Shown: one piece after another, positions 4,997-29,700 of the stretch
Position numbering within the stretch: the first letter of the stretch is position 1
Layout: each line of letters starts with the position of its first letter
Source of the DNA: a plasmid
Sequence record: NZ_CP035509.1
Length of the DNA stretch: 54,639 nt
Direction: 5' to 3' (one strand)
Translations under genes and position numbers: made by a program
The notes under the pieces: generated by a model
The model's database searches: none
What the model saw: the letters and a program-made list of their open reading frames with translations, nothing else
Told to the model about the DNA's origin: nothing

Positions 4997-5073
4997 CCTC
5001 GGCATCGAAGTGACCTGAAGTTCTCGTAGCTGATCGGGGGCTACTGCCCAGGCAGCGCTTGCTGATCCCTTTG

Positions 5074-5496: not shown

Positions 5497-7967
<2,471 letters not shown>

Positions 7968-16921: not shown

Positions 16922-16957
16922 GGCCAGCAAAAGGAAAGCCGCGCTTGGCGCGGCTTT
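16922..16957 (-). terminator. Rho-independent terminator-like hairpin downstream of vapBC
   Basis: AAAGCCGCGC-TTGG-CGCGGCTTT stem-loop, followed on the minus strand by a CTTTTGC U-run. Confidence 0.4.
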
Positions 16958-17043
16958 GGATAGTTCTGGTCAGATCAGAGGATCGACGCGGCCCGAGGGG
17001 CCACGCTCACCCCTGCTTTGAGGCCGTCCACGCCGTGTCCGGA

Positions 17044-17463: not shown

Positions 17464-17699
17464 TCGAAAGTTGCGCCTTCCACGGGTGACGGGTCGCGCA
17501 GATCGTCAAAATCGCTGCCGTGATGTCCTGACCATGCGGACCGCATCTGCTGACCAAGCCCATTCCCTGTTTCTTGGGAAACGGCGGCCGTCAGAATAGC
17601 TCGCATCTCTGCTTCCGTGCTGCGCTGATGACGAACGGCACGGAGCTTCAGGGCAGTGTGAACTTCATCTGGAACGTTGCGAATGGTGACATTTCCCAT
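17460..17699 (-). CDS. vapB: Type II antitoxin VapB (FitA/StbC-like ribbon-helix-helix)
   Basis: MGNVTIRNVPDEVHTALKLRAVRHQRSTEAEMRAIL. 79 aa, directly upstream of vapC. Confidence 0.8.
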   Translation of the reverse strand: MGNVTIRNVPDEVHTALKLRAVRHQRSTEAEMRAILTAAVSQETGNGLGQQMRSAWSGHHGSDFDDLRDPSPVEGATFE

Positions 17700-17761
17700 C
17701 GTGTAGACTCCTTTGATGATCTTTAGTTACAGTAATGATAGCACTTTCCCATTATGCTATC

Positions 17762-17990
17762 AATGGCGCATCCCTCGCGCCGTCTGGTCTAGGGCTTTCG
17801 CCCTGGACCTCCCTGCCCGAGTGACCGCGCTCTAGGCTCCGGCCGGCTGCACCGGCCTGTACCCCGAACCTCGCTCGCCCCTTCTCCCTTCGCGCCAAGA
17901 GGCCCCGCCCCTGTCTCTCCGAGCCAGCGCCGGGGCCGCGCGAATGGTCGAAGGTGCGGCGAGTTTCGGCCCTGCGGGTGACGATCGCTT
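17762..17990 (+). repeat. Copy 1, 5' part, of a roughly 600-bp GC-rich repeat (leader region), split by an inserted small gene
   Basis: About 140 bp (17762-about 17900) match the start of the repeat at 22083-22683. Around 100 bp specific to this copy follow, then the shared GGGTGACGATCGCTTGCGCGGT before the insertion. Confidence 0.6.
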
Positions 17991-18007
17991 GCGCGGTAAG
18001 GGTTACT

Positions 18008-18310
18008 TCAATCGTCGTCGCAGCCGCACCAGTCGATTTCATTTCTTATAACAGGGATGAAACGTGCGGCTTTGACGACCGAGTAAATACGATCAAGACG
18101 ATCCTGCTCAGGCAAAGACCCTTCTTTTAGGATGGTCCGAACTTCTTCAAGACAATCTTCTAAACGCAGAAGCTCTTTAGCCAGTAATCGTCGGTTCTTG
18201 TCTAGCCGATGCATCGCACCGAGGGATCGGAGAACATCAGCGCCATCTTGTGTCGCCTCTGCATGTTCTAGTGCTGCAATGTCTTCGCGAAGTTCATCTA
18301 TGATAATCAT
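18008..18310 (-). CDS. Hypothetical helical protein (100 aa) within a roughly 370-bp insertion splitting repeat copy 1
   Basis: ORF MIIIDELREDIAALEHAEATQDG… is absent from repeat copy 2. Weak RBS. Confidence 0.35.
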   Translation of the reverse strand: MIIIDELREDIAALEHAEATQDGADVLRSLGAMHRLDKNRRLLAKELLRLEDCLEEVRTILKEGSLPEQDRLDRIYSVVKAARFIPVIRNEIDWCGCDDD

Positions 18311-18363
18311 CGTGGCTGCTTTTGAACCGGGTGTAGGGCTTCACAATACACTGTTTTCTGCCA

Positions 18364-18797
18364 TCATCCTAATGTGACACCAGCTCCGCCGTCCTGAAGA
18401 TCGAGGGCAAGCCGCGCGTGCGGCGCGGCTCCGGTTGATCCGAGGGCCAGGCCGGGGGATCGACGCGGCCGAGGGCCGCGCTCACCCCCGCCCTGCGGTT
18501 TTTCCTTTTCGTGTTTCCGCCCAACAGACCTGCCCGAGCCGGTCAATCGGCAAGCGCCGCGCCCGTGGCGCGTCGGCTCCGGCGGGGGCCGTGTCCTCGC
18601 TGCGCTGCGGGCCGCACCACCCCCCGCCTCCGCCCGATGGACAGTCTCGGTCAGGCCCGTGGGTCGGGCTGTGCCCTCCCCACTCTGTTCCGCCGAATAC
18701 ATGCGTATTCGTCAGACCAGACCGGCGAGGCGCAGCCCATCGGCGGAAGAAGGCAACAGACCCGAACCGCCAGCCGCAACACGAAAGGAAAGACCAG
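18364..18797 (+). repeat. Copy 1, 3' part, of the 600-bp leader repeat, upstream of the DUF3560 gene
   Basis: Near-identical to 22250-22683. Contains the palindrome CGAATACATGCGTATTCG at 18694-18711. Confidence 0.7.
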
Positions 18798-20135
18798 ATG
18801 ACCACGATTTCCGCGACCTACTCGCCCGAGGACAACAAAATCCGCCTCTATGCTTCCGCCCGTCTCGATGCCGAAACTTTCCAGCGCGTGAAGGATGCCG
18901 GTTTCAAATGGGCACCGAAACAGGAGCTTTTCGTGGCCCCCTCGTGGTCCTGCGCCCGCGAGGATTTGGCGCTGGAACTGGCGGGCGAGATCGAGCCGGA
19001 GGAAATGACCTTGGCCGAACGCGCCCAGATGAAAGCCGACCGGCTGGACGCCATCGCGGACAAACGCGCCGCTGAGGCCAGCGCCTTTTCCCGCGCCGCC
19101 AACGAACTGTCTAAGGCGTTCGAGTTTGGGCAGCCGATCCTTGTGGGCCACCATTCCGAGCGGAAGGCCCGCAAGACGCAAGAGCGGATGCACAGCGCAC
19201 AGGACAAGGCCAGCAAAGCCCATAAGGCCATTGGCTACTGGCAGTATCGGGCCGAAGGCGTCGAGGCCCACGCGAACCACAAGAACGATCCAAGGGTGCG
19301 GGCGCGGCGGATTCATGGCCTGTTGGCCGAGTTGCGCGACCTGCAACGAAAGCTGAACACCGCGCACAAAGCCCTTGCGACATGGGAGAAGCTGACCACG
19401 GACGACCATATCCGCGCGGCGCTTGGCATTGGCGAACTGTATTCGTTCAACCTGTATTCGCCCGTTGAGCGGGGCGAGATGACCCCGCAGGAGGCCCGCG
19501 AAAAGGCCATGGCCGGAGCGCGTTCGACCATCGAGAGCGGCAACCTGTCGCGCTGGATCATGCACACCCTCAACCGCCTGTCCTATGAACGGGAGATGTT
19601 GGGCGAGGTGCCGCGCTATGATGGAGAGATCACCCCGACCCTTTTGCAGATGTTCGTCCGCGAACATGGGGCCGACAAGCCGAAAGGGTCGAAGCTGGAC
19701 ACCGACCTTTTCGCCGTGGAATGCGAAGCCCCGTTGCCCGCGCATATCGCCCAAGGATCGGGCCTTGAATTGTCAGCCGACGAATGGCGCGACCTGATGC
19801 AGTCTTGTGGCTACCTGCCCCCCGCGAAGAAAGACGCCAAGCCCCCGATCCTCAATTTCAAAGCCCCATCCGGCACGGTTTCCGTGGTGAATCCGCACCG
19901 CCGCGAGGCCCAGGACCTGCCCCAGATCGAATTGACCAAGGCGGAATATGCCAGGATCTACGCCGAGCAGCGCGGCACCCGCCTTTCCACTTGCGGCGGT
20001 TTCCGCGTTCGGATCGCACCGAACCCGAAGCACGAAGGCCCCCGCTATATGGCCGGATGGGCGGCTATTCTCATCACCGACCAGAAGCAGCACGACACGC
20101 CCGAGAGCGTCAAGGACATGGAGGCCGCGGCATGA
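18798..20135 (+). CDS. DUF3560-like plasmid/ICE protein
   Basis: Begins MTTISATYSPEDNKIRLYASARL…FKWAPKQELF…. ATG at 18798 with an AGGAAAGACC RBS. The ORF track's extension back to 18435 lies inside the repeat and is rejected. Confidence 0.65.
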   Translation: MTTISATYSPEDNKIRLYASARLDAETFQRVKDAGFKWAPKQELFVAPSWSCAREDLALELAGEIEPEEMTLAERAQMKADRLDAIADKRAAEASAFSRAANELSKAFEFGQPILVGHHSERKARKTQERMHSAQDKASKAHKAIGYWQYRAEGVEAHANHKNDPRVRARRIHGLLAELRDLQRKLNTAHKALATWEKLTTDDHIRAALGIGELYSFNLYSPVERGEMTPQEAREKAMAGARSTIESGNLSRWIMHTLNRLSYEREMLGEVPRYDGEITPTLLQMFVREHGADKPKGSKLDTDLFAVECEAPLPAHIAQGSGLELSADEWRDLMQSCGYLPPAKKDAKPPILNFKAPSGTVSVVNPHRREAQDLPQIELTKAEYARIYAEQRGTRLSTCGGFRVRIAPNPKHEGPRYMAGWAAILITDQKQHDTPESVKDMEAAA

Positions 20136-20734
20136 CCCGCCCCGCCATGTATTCCCGCCCCGCAAAGCCCCTGACCATTCCGGTCAGGGCGCGACGGGAC
20201 GCGCCCGCCCTGGCGCTGGACGCCGTGCCGGAGGTAATCGCCGTGGACCGTGCCACGGAATGCCATGTCACACCCGACGATGTAGCGCGGCGCATGGTCG
20301 AATATCTCGGACCCGTGGGCGATTATCTGACGCTAGAGCCAAGCGCCGGAACCGGCCAGCTTGCGCGGGCGCTGATCGCGTCCGGACACAGCCCGCGCGA
20401 ACTGACCCTGATCGAGCGGCATCACGCCCTTGCAGCCACGCTGCACAAGATCGGCCCGACGCTGCACCGCTGTTTTCTGGAATATGCCGACGAGGCGCGC
20501 AGCAAGGTCGAGTTTCCCCGCATCCTCATGAATCCGCCTTTCCGCGAATTGCGAAAGCACGTTGCCGCTGCGCTGTCGCTTCTTGGGCGAGGCGGTCACG
20601 ACGCCGCAACGCTGGTCGCACTGGTGCCGGTCACGTTCGAGCATCCCGATGCCGAGCATCTGGAAACCCTGCCGCCCGACACGTTCAGCGCGGCGCGGGT
20701 GCATACCAAAATCATAAGGATTCAGTGCAGTTGA
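20132..20734 (+). CDS. Small orphan SAM-dependent DNA methyltransferase (N6A/N4C type: motif I LEPSAGTG, then motif IV NPPF)
   Basis: TLEPSAGTGQLARAL precedes ILMNPPF. Its ATG overlaps the stop of the DUF3560 gene (ATGA coupling). Confidence 0.55.
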   Translation: MTRPAMYSRPAKPLTIPVRARRDAPALALDAVPEVIAVDRATECHVTPDDVARRMVEYLGPVGDYLTLEPSAGTGQLARALIASGHSPRELTLIERHHALAATLHKIGPTLHRCFLEYADEARSKVEFPRILMNPPFRELRKHVAAALSLLGRGGHDAATLVALVPVTFEHPDAEHLETLPPDTFSAARVHTKIIRIQCS

Positions 20735-21355
20735 TCGACATGGGGGGCCGCGAGGCCCCTCTTTTCGTTCGTGGTCATGGTGCCCGATGACAGGAACGCC
20801 CGAGGGCGCCCCTGTCACCGGCCTTGCGCTATCCGCGCGGGACCGCTGCGCGGGAAAAAGAAAGCGCACCTGCCATTGCGCTTACGGTTGGAGGGCGGTT
20901 TTCCACCCCGGCTTTGCCGGGGCTTGCAGCCGCCGAGCCGGACGCGCCCCCATAGCACGAAGGGAGGCGAGGCGGTTGTCCGATCCCGCCGCCGCCCCTT
21001 TCAGGGACAGCGCCAGGACCGGCTCGCGCTGCCCGCGCGGGGGCGCCTTCGGCGCCGTCGCCTCAAAGGTCAGGCCGCTGGTGCGGCCCGACCTTGAGAA
21101 AGCCCGGAACGCAGCACCGGGGCCATTTGCCACCACCGGGATTTCAGGATCGAGCGCGCCGTTCTGGGCATCCGACCTGATGGCGGCCCGCTCCTTTGAG
21201 TGACTGTCGATTTATTGCTGCTCAGTTTGCTTCGGCCCGGATCGGCGCAAGGGCTGCGCCCTTCTCCACTGCGTTCCGACCCTGCGGGTGCACCAGTCCT
21301 TAAAGCCTTCGCACCTTTGAGCCGCAATCGACACTCACTCAAAGGAGCTACCATC

Positions 21356-21514
21356 ATGACCAAGATCCTCGCCACTCTGCGCTCGATCCTGAAATCCCTC
21401 ACCACCAAGGCGAAAATCAGCGTCTCCGTCGCCCTAAGCGTTCCGGGCTTCCTCAAGGTCGAAGTCAGGTATGCCCGCGACCTCACTGAACCACGAAAGG
21501 ACAAGGACGCCTGA
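21356..21514 (+). CDS. Small protein (52 aa), hypothetical
   Basis: MTKILATLRSILKSLTTKAKISV… with AAAGGAG RBS. A 21-bp long-range inverted repeat flanks 115 bp upstream and includes the RBS. Confidence 0.4.
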   Translation: MTKILATLRSILKSLTTKAKISVSVALSVPGFLKVEVRYARDLTEPRKDKDA

Positions 21515-21548
21515 GCGGCGTCCCGGCCCGCCTTGCGGCGGGCCTTTT

Positions 21549-22040
21549 CTACCGCTGCCACGCCCCGATCCCGTCCCAAAAATCATTCAGGATGCCCAAG
21601 GCCCGATAGGTCCGGCCGCTGTCGTCCGGAAAGAAGTTCTGGATCGCCGCGTGCATCGCGTCCATGCCCCCGAGCTGGTGCAACGCTTCGCCCGCCGATC
21701 GCATGTTCTCCAACACCTCCCCTGACACCTGCGAAGGGAGCGGTGCCGCTTCGACCGCCAGAAACGCATCCCGTGCCAATTGGTAAGTTCGGAAGACCCT
21801 TGTGTGATCGTGCAGGTTAGGTTTGCGGGTTTCTTCTCCTGTCAGAAGCCAGTGCGCGTCCACGTTCAGCTTCGACACGACCAGCGCAAGAAAGTCCGCC
21901 TTGGGCGTCCGGTTGAGGTTGATATAGTTGGACAGGGCGCTTTTACTGATGCCGAACCGTTCTTCCGCATCGCGCAGGGTCATCCCGCATTTGCGGATCG
22001 CTTGTTCAAGACGCATTCCGATCAGTGCCGATTTATCCAT
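21549..22040 (-). CDS. XRE-family helix-turn-helix (HTH) transcriptional regulator (Cro/CI-type)
   Basis: N-terminal HTH (IGMRLEQAIRKCGMTLRDAEERFGISKSALSNY). Divergent from the DUF932 gene and its leader. Confidence 0.8.
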   Translation of the reverse strand: MDKSALIGMRLEQAIRKCGMTLRDAEERFGISKSALSNYINLNRTPKADFLALVVSKLNVDAHWLLTGEETRKPNLHDHTRVFRTYQLARDAFLAVEAAPLPSQVSGEVLENMRSAGEALHQLGGMDAMHAAIQNFFPDDSGRTYRALGILNDFWDGIGAWQR

Positions 22041-22082
22041 GAACGTCTCCTTTTGGATAAATTATTCCACGTTCGAGAACGC

Positions 22083-22683
22083 GAGATCAAGCCTCTGGGC
22101 GCATCCCTCGTGCCGACCGGTCTAGGGCTATCGCCCTGGACCTCCCTGCCCGAGTGACCGCGCTCTAGGCTCCGGCCGGCGGTGCCGGCCTGCGCCCCGA
22201 ACCTCGCTCGCCCCTTCGGGTGACGATCGCTTGCGCGGTGGCCGGGATCTCCCTGCAGGACGCATCACCAGCTCCGCCGTCCTGAAGATCGAGGGCAAGC
22301 CGCGCGTGCGGCGCGGCTCCGGTTGATCCGAGGGCCAGGCCGGGGGATCGACGCGGCCGAGGGCCGCGCTCACCCCCGCCCTGCGGTTTTTCCTTTTCGT
22401 GTTTCCGCCCAACAGACCTGCCCGAGCCGGTCAATCGGCAAGCGCCGCGCCCGTGGCGCGTCGGCTCCGGCGGGGGCCGTGTCCTCGCTGCGCTGCGGGC
22501 CGCACCACCCCCCGCCTCCGCCCGATGGACAGTCTCGGTCAGGCCCGTGGGTCGGGCTGTGCCCTCCCCACTCTGTTCCGCCGAATACATGCGTATTCGT
22601 CAGACCAGACCGGCGAGGCGCAGCCCATCGGCGGAAGAAGGCAACAGACCCGAACCGCCAGCCGCAACACGAAAGGAAAGACT
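22083..22683 (+). repeat. Copy 2 (uninterrupted) of the 600-bp leader repeat, upstream of the DUF932 gene
   Basis: Equals 17762-17900 plus 18364-18797. Palindrome CGAATACATGCGTATTCG at 22582-22599. Confidence 0.7.
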
Positions 22684-23550
22684 ATGGGTTATCAGAACTT
22701 CATGCGCGGAATGACCAACGGCGGCTCGATCTATGGTCGCGGCGAAGCGTTGACCGACGATGCCTTGCGCGCCCGCGTCCCGTCCATCTTCGCCGCCGAG
22801 GCCCACGAAAGCCGCAGCGCCCGCTTTGCCCCCGTGCCGACCATCGACGTGCTGAACAACCTTCGCGCCGAAGGCTTTGAGCCCTTCATGGCGCAGCAGG
22901 CCCGCACCCGCATTGAGGGCAAGGCCGAGTTTACCAAGCACATGCTGCGTCTGCGCCACCGTTCCATCACCAACGGCGACGGCGAGGCGTTCGAGATCAT
23001 CCTTGTGAACGCCAATGACGGCACCAGCGCCTATCAGATGCTTCCCGGCTTTTTCCGCTTTGTTTGCTCCAATGGCCTGATGGCGGGCGAAACCTTCAGC
23101 GAAGTGAAGGTGCGTCATTCGGGCAATGCCGTTGGTGAAGTCATCGAAGGCGCGTATCGCGTTCTGCAGGATGCCCCGGAGATTGCCGAGCGCGTGAAGG
23201 AATTTCGCGCGATCACCTTGCAGGACGAGGAACGCGCGATCCTGGCCGAAGCCGCGCACAGCCTGCGTTTCCCCGCCGCGCACGAGGACGGCGGCAAGGC
23301 CGCGCCCGTATCGGCCGAGAGCTTCATTCGCCCGCGCCGCACGGCTGACCGCGGGACAGATCTTTGGACCGCGTTCAACGTGGTGCAGGAAAACACGATC
23401 AAGGGCGGCATGACCGGATACGCCCGCGATGAAAACGGCCGCATGCGCCGCCGCAGCGTGCGCGAGGTTGCAGGCATCGACCAGAACCGCAACCTGAACC
23501 GCGCCTTGTGGATGCTCACGGAACGCATGGCCGAGCTGAAGGCCGCCTAA
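22684..23550 (+). CDS. DUF932 domain protein (plasmid/ICE-associated)
   Basis: MLPGFFRFVCSNGLM motif characteristic of DUF932. Confidence 0.8.
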   Translation: MGYQNFMRGMTNGGSIYGRGEALTDDALRARVPSIFAAEAHESRSARFAPVPTIDVLNNLRAEGFEPFMAQQARTRIEGKAEFTKHMLRLRHRSITNGDGEAFEIILVNANDGTSAYQMLPGFFRFVCSNGLMAGETFSEVKVRHSGNAVGEVIEGAYRVLQDAPEIAERVKEFRAITLQDEERAILAEAAHSLRFPAAHEDGGKAAPVSAESFIRPRRTADRGTDLWTAFNVVQENTIKGGMTGYARDENGRMRRRSVREVAGIDQNRNLNRALWMLTERMAELKAA

Positions 23551-24168: not shown

Positions 24169-24810
24169 TCAGGCGGCCACAAGCTCCATCGACAGCGCAC
24201 CGTCCGGCAACGGACGTTGCAGCTCCTGCACCACGCTCCATGGTTCATGCAGCCATGCGTCCCATTCGTCGGGGCTGGTCAGGATCACCGGCATCGCCTT
24301 CGGATGCACCTTCGCCACTTCCGCATTCGGTTCGGTGGTCAGGAAGGCATAGAGATCATCAGTCGTTTCTCCATCCTTCAGCTTGCGGATCGAGGTCCAT
24401 TGCGGGACGTGCAGACCGGCAAAAAAGGCCGGCCGGTCCTCGGCAGGCGTGAACCACGCTTTTCCTTCGCCGTGAACCGGCTCCGAAAAGGCGGTCAACG
24501 GCACGAGGCAGCGGAACCGCGGATTGAGCCACCGCCGCCAGTGCGGCGATCCCGTGTTGCGGATATTGGTCACGCCCTTGTCGATGCCGTTCTTGGAATG
24601 GAATTGCTTGGGGCTTGGCAAGCCCCATCGCGCCATTGCCAGTTCCAGCCCGTCCCCTTCCTGTCCGTCATGGCGCAGAACGGGTGCAAGCTCGTTGGGA
24701 TAGATCCTTTCCTGTGAAGGCAGGTTTCCCAACCGATCCTCAACAGAAAAGCCCCGGAAGATCTCTCGCAGCGCATCTTGCGCCCGCGTGTGCCGGTAAA
24801 GATTGCACAT
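24169..24810 (-). CDS. SOS response-associated peptidase (SRAP/YedK-HMCES family)
   Basis: The domain begins MCNLYRHT… (Met-Cys N-terminus required by SRAP chemistry). The in-frame ORF extends a further 135 codons upstream to 25215; see findings. Confidence 0.55.
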   Translation of the reverse strand: MCNLYRHTRAQDALREIFRGFSVEDRLGNLPSQERIYPNELAPVLRHDGQEGDGLELAMARWGLPSPKQFHSKNGIDKGVTNIRNTGSPHWRRWLNPRFRCLVPLTAFSEPVHGEGKAWFTPAEDRPAFFAGLHVPQWTSIRKLKDGETTDDLYAFLTTEPNAEVAKVHPKAMPVILTSPDEWDAWLHEPWSVVQELQRPLPDGALSMELVAA

Positions 24811-25229
24811 GGCTGTTTCCGCCCCTTCCACGGCAGGCCGGTCCTTCGCACGCGGCCACGACTCTTTCGGCTTCGGGGTGGAAGTGCTGGACGACACAGC
24901 CGGTTCCGGCTTTGCCGGTTTCGCGTTCGGTTTGCGGGTCGGTTTTGCCACATCCGCCGCGCCTCTGGCGCGGCGGTCCTTCTCGGCCGTCAGCGCCTTG
25001 AGGTAGGTGTCCAGAACGCGGTCGGTCGCAGACGTGGCCCAAAGGGCGGCCGCCTGGTCCAGTTGCCCATCGGTGAACCCGTCCAGCCGTGGGCCGTCCC
25101 ACATCTTGGCGAGGATGCTCACAAGAGCTTCCTCGCGATCCTCCGGATGGCAGGCATGGGCGGCATACACGAGAGCCTTGGCCGCCGCGATACGACTGAC
25201 ATGAATACCCGTCATCGTCCCCCCCTGCC

Positions 25230-26686: not shown

Positions 26687-27315
26687 GTCACTCTCTCCCT
26701 AGCCACGAACATTGCGTGTTCCTAAAAGTCCAGACGGGCCACTTGGTCCAAACGGCCCCAACAGGCCGAACAGCTATAGTGTGCCTTTAGTGCCTGAAAG
26801 ATGCAACAGGCCATTAGGTCCGGATAGTCCGGAAAGCTTTCTCAGGCTAAGCATACCTAAAGGACCAATCGTCCTTGATGGGCCGTTCGTCCTTCACGGT
26901 CCTGTCGTGCCTCTCAGGCCCTTCGGCCTTATTGTACCATACAGTCCATTCAGCCCTAATGTCCCGCATGGTGCCTGTTTGCCGCTTGGCAGGCTTTCAG
27001 TCCAGTCAGTCCAATTGTCCCGCTCCTTCTATGGTCCCTCGAATGAAGGAAGCGCACAGCGCGGCCTCCCAGGGCCGTCAGGAGGCTGCTTGCCCTCTAC
27101 CCACCTGAGGATGGCTGGAGGGCTCTCACAACTCCTCTCTGTCACTCTCAGCACATATCCGAAGGGTTCGGGTCGCCCTACGTGGCGACCCTCAAGTGGA
27201 GCTTCCTGCGTCAGCAAGTTTTATCCTAGGGGTGGGTTTAAGTAAGCGGCAGGATATATGCAAATGTAGAACATTGTGCTATAGGTATCGAAACCCACCC
27301 CCGAGGCCCCCGCCC
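26687..27315 (+). promoter_or_regulatory. Divergent intergenic region between virC1-like and mobC genes; candidate oriT/overdrive-like region and divergent promoters
   Basis: Positioned where oriT lies in virC/virD-type modules. Contains a strand-biased array of 13 GTCC pentamers (26712-27045) and an AT-richer stretch before mobC. Confidence 0.45.
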
Positions 27316-27792
27316 ATGAGCGACGACCAAAAGCAAAAAGAGCCGTGGAAGAAGCGCCGCATGATTGGCGGTCAGTGGACGGACCCCGCTGCGGTGGTGT
27401 CGAAGGCAACCGTCAACAAGACGATTTCGGTGCGTCTGACGGAGGCGGAGTTGGCTGACTTCGACGCTCAGATCGACGCTTTGGGGATCAATCGGAACCG
27501 TGCCCTGCGGATCATGGCCCGTCAGGTGGGCGGTTTTCTCGAAGAAGATGCGGCCTCCGTTGCCCATCTCGCCGACATTTCTCGCCAGCTTCGGGGCATC
27601 GCCGTCAACGTGAACCAGATCGCGAAGGCCGCGAACCGGACCACGGACCCGGATTTCATCGCCTTCATGGAGGAGCGGCAGCGTCTCGGGAAGGAGCTGT
27701 CGCGGGTCCAGTCCTACCTTCAGGCCCTTTTCGACATCGACAAGCGACGGTCTGACGGGGCCGAGCGGTTGAAGAAAGCGGCCCAGAAGTGA
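27316..27792 (+). CDS. mobC: MobC-family relaxosome accessory protein (ribbon-helix-helix; VirD1-like role)
   Basis: …LRGIAVNVNQIAKAANR… (the NxNQiAr motif of the MobC family). Its stop overlaps the relaxase GTG start (GTGA). Confidence 0.7.
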   Translation: MSDDQKQKEPWKKRRMIGGQWTDPAAVVSKATVNKTISVRLTEAELADFDAQIDALGINRNRALRIMARQVGGFLEEDAASVAHLADISRQLRGIAVNVNQIAKAANRTTDPDFIAFMEERQRLGKELSRVQSYLQALFDIDKRRSDGAERLKKAAQK

Positions 27793-28321
27793 GCATTCAC
27801 GTCCCCGATCTTCTGGCGAATGCCCGCAAAGCCCCGCGCTTCCTTTCGGCGCTGGATGCGGTCATGGGCGAAGATTGGGCCGAGGTGAAGCTTGGCCGTG
27901 GCGGCCGGATGCTGCAAATGCAGGTGGCCTTGAAGGCCGCGCATGAGCGGGACGTTGCGCCTGGCGGTGCTGCCTATTCCTCCCAGATACTGCCCGGCAT
28001 CAACCCGCAATCCATGGTCAAGATGGTCAGGGGCGGGGGTGCATCCACCGCGCGGGGACTGATGGCGCAGATGGATTATCTGAGTCGTCAGGACGATCTG
28101 CCCCTTCGTCGTTCGGAGGAATACATGGGCGTCGAGATCGACGCCGAGGAAGCCGTCGCCATGGCGCGCGGCTGGCAGATGCCCACGGAAGGCGGCAAGG
28201 CCGATCGCACGTCGCATTTCGTGGTCAGCTTTCCCATCGGGACAGATCCCGCCGCCGCCGAAGCTTCGGGACGGGCATGGGCGCAGGAAATGTTCGGCTC
28301 CGGTAATTTCGGGGGCGACCG
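27789..28321 (+). pseudogene. VirD2-like relaxase, N-terminal part (gene disrupted by composite B)
   Basis: …TSHFVVSFPIGTDPAAAEASGRAWAQEMFGSGNFGGDR aligns with VirD2 …IIVSFPAGTD…EMFGSGYGGG. It is broken at the 9-bp GGGCGACCG duplication. Confidence 0.8.
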
Positions 28322-29700
28322 GGCTCTGATGATGTGACCGCCCCCCGACGGCATCTCTGTGCCAAGGTGGGTCTGCGATGATCCACAAAGGAGGACGGTC
28401 ATGTCGGAGATTATCACGGTCGGGCTCGATCTGGCGAAGAATGTGTTCCAGGTGCATGGGGCGGACGCCGCAGGCGGTGCGGTGCTACGGAAGAAGCTGC
28501 GGCGCACGCAGGTGCTGGGGTTCTTTGAGGCTTTGCCGCCTTGCGTCGTGGCGATGGAAGCCTGTGGTGGTGCACATTACTGGGGTCGAGAGATTGGCAA
28601 GCTTGGACATGAGGTCCGGCTGATCCCTCCGGCCTACGTGAAGCCCTTCGTCAAACGGCAGAAGAATGACGCCGCCGACGCCGAGGCGATTTGCGAAGCT
28701 GCACAGCGTCCGACGATGCGCTTCGTGTCGGTGAAGAGCGAAGAGACCCAAGGGGCGGCGATGGTGTTCCGCGTGCGCGAGTTACTGATCCGGCAGCGCA
28801 CCCAGGCGATCAACGCCCTGCGCGGTCACCTTGCCGAGTTCGGGCAGGTTGTGCCGCAGGGCGCTGCCAATGCCTCGAAGCTGATCGCCATCGTCGAGGA
28901 TCCAGAGAGCGGGTTGCCCGCCGAGGCGACAGCCACCCTGCAGGTTCTGATCGGATCCTTGGCGCACCTCGAGGCGCAGATCGGGAGGCTCGATGCCGAG
29001 ATCTCACGCTGCGCCAAAGAGAACGAGGTCGCCCGACGGCTGATGACGGTGCCGGGCATCGGCCCGCTGATCGCGACGGCTATCGCGACACTTGCGCCGC
29101 CCCCCGAGACCTTCCGGAAGGCCCGGGATTTTGCAGCCTGGCTCGGGTTGGTGCCCAGGCAACACTCGACCGGTGGCAAGCAGCGCCTCGGAGCGACGAC
29201 GAAGATGGGCGAGCGGTCTCTCAGGCGGCTGCTGATCATTGGCGCCAACAGCGTGATCATCAAGCGCCACGTCCATCGTGAAGCTCAACCCGGCACATGG
29301 CTGGGGAACATGCTGTCGCGCAAGCCGTCGATGCTGGTGCGTGTCGCGCTGGCGAACAAGATGGCGCGGATTGTCTGGGCTTTGATGGCCCGCGGTGGCG
29401 TATACCAGTCTCCGGCCGTGGCAGCGTAAGCAGCCGTCGGTCGCGAGGACGTCGGAGCGGAAGAGGGCAAGGAGCAGTTTGGCGCAACAGTCGTGAGACG
29501 GGATCGGGAGAACCAGTGTGCAACAGAGTGCCTTTGAGCACGCGGCTTTGATCTGGACCCGACCTTCGAACACCATACGGGCCCGCGGCATGACCAAGGC
29601 CGCATCAGAGGCCGGACACATGTCAGCACCCGGTGACGCGCGGAAAGCAGCTCTGAAATTACCCCTTGCGCAAGGGGCGGTTACACATGTTGCACAAATC
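28322..29700 (+). mobile_element. IS110-like copy C
   Basis: Identical to 11882-13260. Confidence 0.75.
28401..29429 (+). CDS. IS110 family transposase
   Basis: Identical to the 11961-12989 product. Confidence 0.9.
   Translation: MSEIITVGLDLAKNVFQVHGADAAGGAVLRKKLRRTQVLGFFEALPPCVVAMEACGGAHYWGREIGKLGHEVRLIPPAYVKPFVKRQKNDAADAEAICEAAQRPTMRFVSVKSEETQGAAMVFRVRELLIRQRTQAINALRGHLAEFGQVVPQGAANASKLIAIVEDPESGLPAEATATLQVLIGSLAHLEAQIGRLDAEISRCAKENEVARRLMTVPGIGPLIATAIATLAPPPETFRKARDFAAWLGLVPRQHSTGGKQRLGATTKMGERSLRRLLIIGANSVIIKRHVHREAQPGTWLGNMLSRKPSMLVRVALANKMARIVWALMARGGVYQSPAVAA

Follow-up and report, generated by a model that had tools for sequence, protein, structure and literature searches.

The stretch analysed here is a 54,639-nucleotide (nt) sequence from a plasmid (sequence record NZ_CP035509.1; hereafter the window), in which two copies of a long, GC-rich leader lie directly 5' of two different genes, a DUF3560 gene (leader copy 1) and a DUF932 gene (leader copy 2). 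The gene order was taken from Pfam scans of the open reading frames (ORFs) of the window, part of which were scanned. It runs from vapBC (-) through leader copy 1, the DUF3560 gene (+) and a methyltransferase-like ORF (+) to a nested inverted repeat of ~370 nt, and continues with an XRE-family gene (-), leader copy 2, the DUF932 gene (+), an ORF of 95 amino acids (aa) (+), a gene for a SOS-response-associated peptidase (SRAP) (-) and the VirC2 and VirC1 genes (-). After a gap follow the genes for a VirD1/MobC-like protein, a VirD2-type relaxase and VirD4 (all +), and then RepC. Coordinates are collected in Table 1. As argued below, we lean towards reading the leader as an element that would act on the transferred strand of the plasmid while this is single-stranded.

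Pairwise comparison within the window showed that the two leaders, which the original prediction had called near-identical, share 417 nt at 100% identity (18378-18794 = 22266-22682). The identity stops 2-3 nt short of the ATG codons of the DUF3560 (18798) and DUF932 (22684) genes, and not ~90 nt before them as had been thought, and the Shine-Dalgarno (SD) sequence AAAGGAAAG lies within both copies. It is the palindrome CGAATACATGCGTATTCG (18694-18711 in copy 1, 22582-22599 in copy 2) that stands ~85 nt 5' of the ATG. The palindrome and the GC hairpin GCCGCGCGTGCGGCGCGGC (18411-18429 in copy 1, 22299-22317 in copy 2) had been placed correctly, while the GC content of the leader, earlier put at ~75%, was measured as 71%; that of the flanking genes is ~63%, and that of the insertion in copy 1 is 47.6%. 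The possibility that the repeat is a longer duplicated coding sequence was rejected, as the ORFs crossing it had no Pfam match and its homologues are set apart from one another by indels and by compensated changes in the stems.

Upstream of the exact repeat, both copies carry modules that are less alike (93% between 17765-17884 and 22098-22217, and 94% between 17966-17997 and 22208-22239) and that are confined to the Paracoccus/Haematobacter lineage. Full (100%) identity over the 417 nt, set against 93-94% in the flanking modules, suggests that the copies were homogenised recently. Of the earlier proposal of a recent duplication or gene conversion, the recent homogenisation is thereby retained, and the local duplication is given up in favour of membership of a large family, described below. 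Copy 2 probably carries a deletion opposite 17885-17965, because the Paracoccus homologues hold ~95 nt where copy 1 has 81 nt. A 417-nt contig of Haematobacter genomosp. 1 H2240 (L019) aligned almost end to end with the repeat (nhmmer E=2.6e-84) and is, judged by this match, the same repeat collapsed in a short-read draft assembly; the window is thus probably derived from a plasmid of Haematobacter. The insertion that splits copy 1 does contain the 100-codon ORF described before (18008-18310), and its size is 380 bp rather than ~370 bp. This orphan ORF had no Pfam match, and its homologues were found only in Haematobacter massiliensis and in locus L119; as these are Haematobacter only and uninformative, the ORF was dropped as a clue to the function of the leader. 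The insertion also brought in a sigma-70-like site at 18340-18367 (+), TTCACA-N16-CATCAT with TG ahead, which is directed into the 417-nt leader and on to the DUF3560 gene. A degenerate third fragment of the leader lies between an insertion sequence (IS)-rich stretch and vapC, and hints that insertions have broken up another leader.

The search of other plasmids for the leader, proposed at the outset, found related leaders before DUF932, DUF3560 and further genes in over 120 alpha-, beta- and gammaproteobacterial species. By blastn, the leader or its centre was present in 279-323 plasmid records, and none of these matches was annotated. An exact-pattern scan found a 31-nt centre (GGCCGTGTCCTCGC..TNCGCTGCGGGCCGCAC) in at least 120 genome stretches of the same three classes; this 31-nt core, which reads GGCCGTGTCCTCGCTGCGCTGCGGGCCGCAC in the window, was also matched in 323 plasmid records. 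Its distance to the start codon has a median of 181 nt. Counted as distinct proteins, the downstream gene encodes DUF932 (43), ArdC (13), a ParB-like protein (11) or DUF3560 (4), followed by DUF3768, KfrA and a DUF4942-methyltransferase; the genes served are leading-region genes. In a Paracoccus plasmid (L001), the leader unit occurs in four copies, before DUF932, a ParB-like gene, DUF3560 and a small ORF. On the strength of these matches, the leader is one member of a large repeated family in plasmids and integrative and conjugative elements (ICEs) and not a local duplication. Rfam, which had been suggested as a check, gave no match at gathering score in the whole window and no relevant one at E<=1 in 17600-22800. 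A full-text literature search for the core sequence returned no relevant paper, and the core sequence was lacking in the supplements to Samuel et al. 2024. Scanning metagenomes with CTCTGTTCCGCCGAA gave chance matches only, with no core nearby, and scans of viral contigs with half-cores gave mostly chance matches and ~10 true variants of the core.

The minus strand of the leader is predicted to form a GC-rich, multi-branched fold of ~290 nt. Its parts are a long imperfect hairpin with the 31-nt core as its cap, another hairpin that ends in the palindrome, and a helix that closes the fold. The covariation that had been asked about was found in stem P1, in the palindrome helix and in the consensus of the leader type to which the window belongs (the alpha type). 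Stem P1, in which 22469-22476 pairs with 22508-22516, encloses the core, and all five of its five pairs are changed on both sides, in 10-33 of 65 sequences. Within the core, a mini-hairpin expands with covariation through GC, GCC/GGC, GCGC/GCGC, GCCC/GGGC and GCCCC/GGGGC. The alignment of the alpha type (A4; 21 sequences of ~12 lineages) has 62 consensus pairs on the minus strand, with 95.1% of the cells paired as against ~45% when the partners were slid by 1-3 columns. Twenty-four of the pairs are changed on both sides, compared with 12.7±1.8 in shuffled alignments, none of which (0/500) reached 24. These results indicate that the predicted structure of the leader is real.

The palindrome had been seen as an operator-like site. 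Its presence in both copies was confirmed, and it forms the tip of a hairpin whose helix (helix 4 of A4) covaries, with nine of its 11 pairs changed on both sides; this helix also includes G·T pairs specific to the minus strand. Compensated variants occur in L068 and L007. Among the changed helices, a Roseibium locus has CGAAACC..GGTTTCG, and a second locus has CGAATGGG..CCCATTCG. Given these compensated changes and minus-only G·T pairs, and an XRE homologue in only one related locus, we favour a hairpin tip over an XRE operator, a role that our comparison did not support.

By four independent measures, the minus strand is the predicted folding strand. Folded as single-stranded DNA (ssDNA), the leader in the window had z-scores of -5.95 (minus strand) and -2.11 (plus strand). 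Among 95 distinct homologues, the minus strand had the lower minimum free energy in 86-90 and the lower dinucleotide-shuffle z in 76, with mean z of -5.08 (minus) and -3.42 (plus); the dinucleotide shuffling controls for a mild C-richness of the plus strand. When helices were predicted without wobble pairs, the single mismatches within them, read on the plus strand, were A·C in 29 cases and G·T in four. Since A·C on the plus strand equals G·T on the minus strand, this excess argues that the minus strand folds. The consensus cells of A4 contained 130 minus-strand G·T and nine A·C, a count that is biased toward the minus strand by a structure predicted on that strand with G·U allowed; limited to pairs that are most commonly Watson-Crick, our own tally was roughly 50 G·T against nine A·C. 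The folding strand is thus antisense to the mRNA and the same as the transferred strand identified below, which tells against a structured 5' untranslated region (UTR) or a small RNA as the main form of the leader. What is retained of that earlier view is a long, non-coding, structured regulatory leader common to two plasmid genes; an operator, a 5' UTR or a small RNA as its main form appears less likely.

The gap between the VirC1/VirC2 genes and the VirD1-like, relaxase and VirD4 genes holds GCGGCAGGATATATGC (27247-27262), which corresponds to the nick core of T-DNA borders and RP4, and an inverted repeat, GGGTGGGTTT/AAACCCACCC (27231-27240 and 27292-27301), flanks this core. VirD2 and TraI of RP4 cut the strand that reads ...ATATCCTG|CC, which leaves 5' end first. 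Because the bottom strand carries the nick core, to be cut after ATCCTG, and would leave 5' end first, the minus strand of the window is the predicted transferred strand, with a predicted nick near 27250. The DNA at lower coordinates would therefore be the leading region, and both leaders would lie in it, at 4.6 and 8.5 kb from the nick core on its low-coordinate side. The DUF3560 gene, the methyltransferase-like ORF and the DUF932 gene are all on the plus strand, so that the transferred minus strand is their template and the genes point toward the transfer origin (oriT). The same polarity was found in Agrobacterium pAt3, and the core was co-oriented with the relaxase or mob gene in all seven of the seven replicons showing both (the window, L001, L128, L126, L127, L490 and L491).

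Two observations on this transfer region stand apart. The candidate oriT (27231-27301) lies just 5' of the likely true start of the VirD1/MobC-like gene, which is probably the ATG at 27317 and not the GTG at 27196. The VirD2-type relaxase gene (27789-33978) is apparently interrupted, with an N-terminal part at 27789-28337 and a C-terminal part at 32029-33978 (PF03432 match), and the insertions in it are IS110 at 28359-29429 and 30986-32056 (-) and IS5 at 29746-30678.

Promoter features were clearest in the leaders of the beta/gamma ICE type (e.g., that of Paraburkholderia xenovorans LB400), in which the minus strand forms one hairpin of ~260 nt (z=-5.7). On the minus strand, its 3' arm carries TTGACG-N16-TA[CA][AG]GT, with conserved hexamers and a covarying spacer, and the -10 hexamer abuts an asymmetric internal loop, opposite the unrelated TCCTGACCG or TCCCTTTCG. 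An acceptable -10 hexamer was present in 33 of 58 minus-strand arms with TTGAC, compared with none of 61 plus-strand arms. By these sequence features, a promoter is well supported in the beta/gamma relatives. For the alpha type of the window, we infer one from a -35-like TTGACC in the arm of the core hairpin, homologous to the beta/gamma TTGACG; the plus-strand arm of the same hairpin has the poorer TGGACA.

On these grounds, we think it moderately probable that the leader represents a new sequence family of ssDNA elements of the transferred strand, similar to the Frpo/ssp elements of the F plasmid, which would give early expression of DUF932 and DUF3560. It would act in cis on the transferred (minus) strand while this is single-stranded in the recipient. 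The folded strand would rebuild a duplex promoter at which the host RNA polymerase starts, as at Frpo1/Frpo2 (ssp1a/b) and ssp2; the hairpin arm with the hexamers would be the non-template strand, and the polymerase would use the other arm as template and move outward into the gene, reading the transferred strand toward oriT. Expression of DUF932, DUF3560 and the methyltransferase would then precede the formation of the complementary strand. The transcript, the stable hairpin or both may also prime or delay the synthesis of the complementary strand, and the promoter would be lost once the DNA is double-stranded.

The likeness to F is considerable. Frpo1 and Frpo2 are a ~550-nt repeat with 89% identity, ~5 kb apart, of which Frpo1 lies 5' of ygeA and a DUF932 gene; ParB-like and methylase genes are also present in the leading region of F, all pointing to oriT, and the transferred strand of Frpo1 folds with z=-6.2. 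Both Frpo1 and Frpo2 are necessary for early, transient expression in transconjugants (PMC9849209). Transcripts from Frpo can act as primers of DNA synthesis, and ssp2 forms a stem-loop that works as a roadblock (10.64898/2026.01.09.698686). Like Frpo1/Frpo2 (ssp1a/ssp1b), ssp2 and ssp3, the leaders of the window lie in the leading region, on the transferred strand and 5' of genes pointing to oriT. Like Frpo, the leader is several hundred nt long and relatively GC-rich, as ssDNA promoters are in relation to their own plasmid (PMC13478746), and it has a long imperfect hairpin, with z about -6 in both. In both plasmids, near-identical copies lie a few kb apart and one copy precedes a DUF932 gene, and in relatives of the leader one arm carries both the -35 and the -10, the latter at an internal loop. 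The differences are as follows. The leader has an invariant apical core of 31 nt across Alpha-, Beta- and Gammaproteobacteria, which Frpo lacks; its alpha type is multi-branched, with the SD within the closing helix and no recognisable -10; and its hosts are MOBP/VirD2-type plasmids and ICEs, not IncF/IncI. Comparison of the window leader with F positions 50-68 kb gave nothing significant (best blastn E=0.03 over 35 nt).

Several observations weigh against a transferred-strand promoter. In the alpha type, no -10 can be recognised 16-18 nt from TTGACC; this position reads TTGGGC, which is paired via two T·G wobbles and varies between lineages. A search of the alpha type for a canonical -10, which took in both arms, the palindrome hairpin, the closing helix and the upstream modules, gave no convincing candidate, and patterns of the extracytoplasmic function (ECF), RpoH or sigma-54 kind were not seen by eye. 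The short Phaeobacter type lacks both hexamers. The distance from the core to the -35 varies from ~2 to ~40 nt, and the core is therefore not a classical upstream promoter element. The small helices predicted inside the core contain plus-strand G·U pairs; they do not covary, and one T-to-A variant lacks a compensating change. Part, but not all, of the raw energy asymmetry is explained by the mildly C-rich plus strand of the neighbourhood. A Phaeobacter-like lineage (L003, L023, L038 and L044) has two convergent cores ~3 kb apart, each 5' of its own genes (5001-5044 (+) and 7831-7868 (-) in L003), which does not fit a single transferred strand. Finally, with a relaxase gene apparently interrupted by IS elements, the plasmid copy in the window may not transfer by itself.

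A wider role for the core is also conceivable, which we offer tentatively and consider doubtful as a whole. The 31-nt core (GGCCGTGTCCTC, a variable mini-hairpin and TGCGGGCCGCAC) would mark an undescribed, pan-proteobacterial element of the transferred strand that combines docking, early transcription, timing and SD silencing. The core would dock a conserved host factor (RNA polymerase, SSB, helicase or primase) and so nucleate the hairpin on the incoming ssDNA; the docked element would launch early transcription and time the synthesis of the complementary strand. When transcribed from double-stranded DNA (dsDNA), the inverted repeats would sequester the SD, and the entry genes would be silent in established cells.

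Silencing of the SD by itself is the subject of the next explanation, a 5' UTR on the plus-strand RNA, in which the anti-SD segment 22387-22403 pairs with the SD region 22666-22682 and blocks translation until a signal opens the fold. In both copies (18499-18515 and 18778-18794 in copy 1), a predicted Watson-Crick helix of 14 bp sequesters the SD; in L068 and in one L001 copy the two segments have different sequences and are still complementary, and the plus-strand RNA folds with z=-3.2. We nevertheless regard this as an unlikely account of the leader, because the wobble pairs, the z-scores and the mismatch types all favour the minus strand. The pairing is also weaker in other copies: L119 has a weak SD helix, as do two of the three Paracoccus (L001) copies that are full-length. 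In addition, the SD of the beta/gamma type lies ~100 nt outside the hairpin, and the leader is without an Rfam match. Such a 5' UTR could coexist with the ssDNA role: in established cells read-through mRNA would be silenced, and a transcript started inside the hairpin would lack the anti-SD.

Slightly less likely again is a signal chiefly for the handling of the incoming strand rather than a promoter, in which the core hairpin would be a priming site (ssi/sso-like) or a replication roadblock timing complementary-strand synthesis, and its position before genes would be secondary. The small plasmids Agrobacterium pAt3, Xanthomonas pXAG27 and a P. aeruginosa GES plasmid, which have a single core near repA, speak for it, and in pAt3 and pXAG27 no co-directional gene lies directly 3' of the core. 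That the core does not vary across three classes points to a conserved host machinery that recognises it, and the priming by Frpo transcripts and the ssp2 roadblock of F offer a precedent. Yet the core mostly lies 100-270 nt 5' of a co-directional leading-region gene, clear promoter hexamers are present in the beta/gamma relatives, and no primase gene was noted among the scanned part of the window ORFs. The ssoA/ssoU elements of rolling-circle plasmids and the ssi elements are strand-specific folded ssDNA, read by host RNA polymerase or primase and inactive once double-stranded. The leader shares with them the strand-specific folding of ssDNA; unlike the leader, they serve replication only and do not precede protein genes, and their conserved motifs (e.g., CS-6) were not identified in the leader, for which no formal search was made.

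Marginally the least probable of these explanations, in our judgement, is a dsDNA leader of the kind of the IncN CUP sequences, with a promoter, the palindrome as operator and a plasmid repressor (e.g., the XRE protein), so that DUF932 and DUF3560 would form a regulon repressed after establishment. As described in the part of PMC6289460 that cites Delver & Belogurov 1997, the CUP sequences of pKM101/R46 are conserved non-coding repeats before several leading-region and antirestriction genes, forming one regulon, and are bound by ArdK. The leader resembles them, by that description, in its place before several leading-region genes, and in being repeated (two copies here, four in Paracoccus L001). 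In line with this, the divergent XRE-family gene does adjoin copy 2 as earlier reported (a helix-turn-helix (HTH) gene at 21549-22040 (-)), and the palindrome is the sole AT-richer spot in the leader. XRE and leader were not consistently linked, however: an XRE homologue was found in one related locus only and none in a 24-kb Paracoccus stretch with four leaders. Unlike CUP, which are dsDNA operators for ArdK, the leader showed no consistently linked repressor and its pairing is strand-specific: the compensated changes and minus-only G·T pairs of the palindrome helix break the duplex symmetry that an operator needs. Moreover, no sigma-70-like promoter was seen on the plus strand of the 417-nt repeat, the palindrome is missing in the beta/gamma and Phaeobacter types while the core is still kept, and no IncN-sized enterobacterial plasmids were among the matches listed. 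An antisense RNA or a 5' UTR of the XRE gene as the carrier of the minus-strand fold was rejected as unlikely, because XRE and vapB have promoter-like sites of their own near their start codons and leaders in other plasmids follow co-directional genes; single-stranded transferred DNA is the natural candidate for the carrier of the fold.

To our knowledge, experimental demonstrations of ssDNA promoters are confined to F-like and IncI plasmids, and how anti-defence and establishment genes are switched on at entry in other plasmids and ICEs is largely unknown. If the leader does act as an ssDNA promoter of the Frpo/ssp kind, the principle would extend to alpha-, beta- and gammaproteobacterial plasmids and ICEs of the MOBP/VirD2 type, including carbapenemase plasmids of Pseudomonas, Aeromonas and Enterobacterales. 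The 31-nt core would then be a simple sequence tag for leading regions and entry genes, and its invariant motif a handle with which to seek its binding partner directly.

Table 1. Positions of the leaders, their predicted parts and the neighbouring features in the window.
Feature	Position	Strand	Remarks
Leader copy 1	18378-18794	-	Exact 417-nt repeat, directly 5' of the DUF3560 gene
Leader copy 2	22266-22682	-	Exact 417-nt repeat, directly 5' of the DUF932 gene; minus is the predicted transferred strand and proposed folding strand
Invariant 31-nt core	22475-22505 (copy 2); 18587-18617 (copy 1)	-	GGCCGTGTCCTCGCTGCGCTGCGGGCCGCAC; enclosed by stem P1
Core hairpin	22408-22551	-	Predicted minus-strand fold
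-35-like TTGACC (GGTCAA on plus)	22429-22434; 18541-18546 in copy 1	-	Core-hairpin arm; homologous to beta/gamma TTGACG
Palindrome-tipped hairpin	22553-22627	-	Tip CGAATACATGCGTATTCG, 22582-22599; predicted minus-strand fold
Small hairpin	22629-22660	-	Predicted minus-strand fold
Closing helix	22389-22403 with 22666-22679		Anti-SD paired to SD (predicted)
Anti-SD segment TTTTTCCTTTTCGTGTT	22387-22403; partner SD region 22666-22682		Closes the ~290-nt domain (predicted)
Upstream module of copy 1	17765-17997		Includes the 81-nt segment 17885-17965, lacking in copy 2
Upstream module of copy 2	22098-22239		93-94% identical to 17765-17884 and 17966-17997; also repeated in Paracoccus locus L001
Insertion splitting copy 1	17998-18377	-	380 bp, AT-richer; orphan 100-aa ORF 18008-18310 (-)
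Degenerate third leader fragment (5' part)	16933-17016		75% identical to 22294-22379
DUF3560 gene	18798-20135	+	PF12083, E=8.6e-24; served by leader copy 1
Methyltransferase-like ORF	20132-20734	+	After DUF3560; weak MTS match; Paracoccus neighbour annotated as methyltransferase
XRE-family HTH gene	21549-22040	-	HTH_19/HTH_3; divergent from copy 2; own promoter-like site 22090-22061
DUF932 gene	22684-23550	+	PF06067, E=2.6e-47; served by leader copy 2
oriT nick core GGCAGGATATAT	27248-27259	-	T-DNA-border/RP4 type (predicted)

Two further features of the leading region were noted. The SRAP gene (24169-25215, -), which has a long N-terminal extension, lies between DUF932 and virC2. The nested inverted repeat between the methyltransferase-like gene and the XRE gene (21089-21461, ~370 nt) has a minus-strand ssDNA fold with z=-9.9. 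Its right arm contains an SD and the ATG (21353) of a 53-aa ORF, which had no Pfam match, together with a sigma-70-like TCGACA-N18-CATCAT at 21328-21357, and the repeat could be another ssDNA-active element or a type I toxin-like locus.

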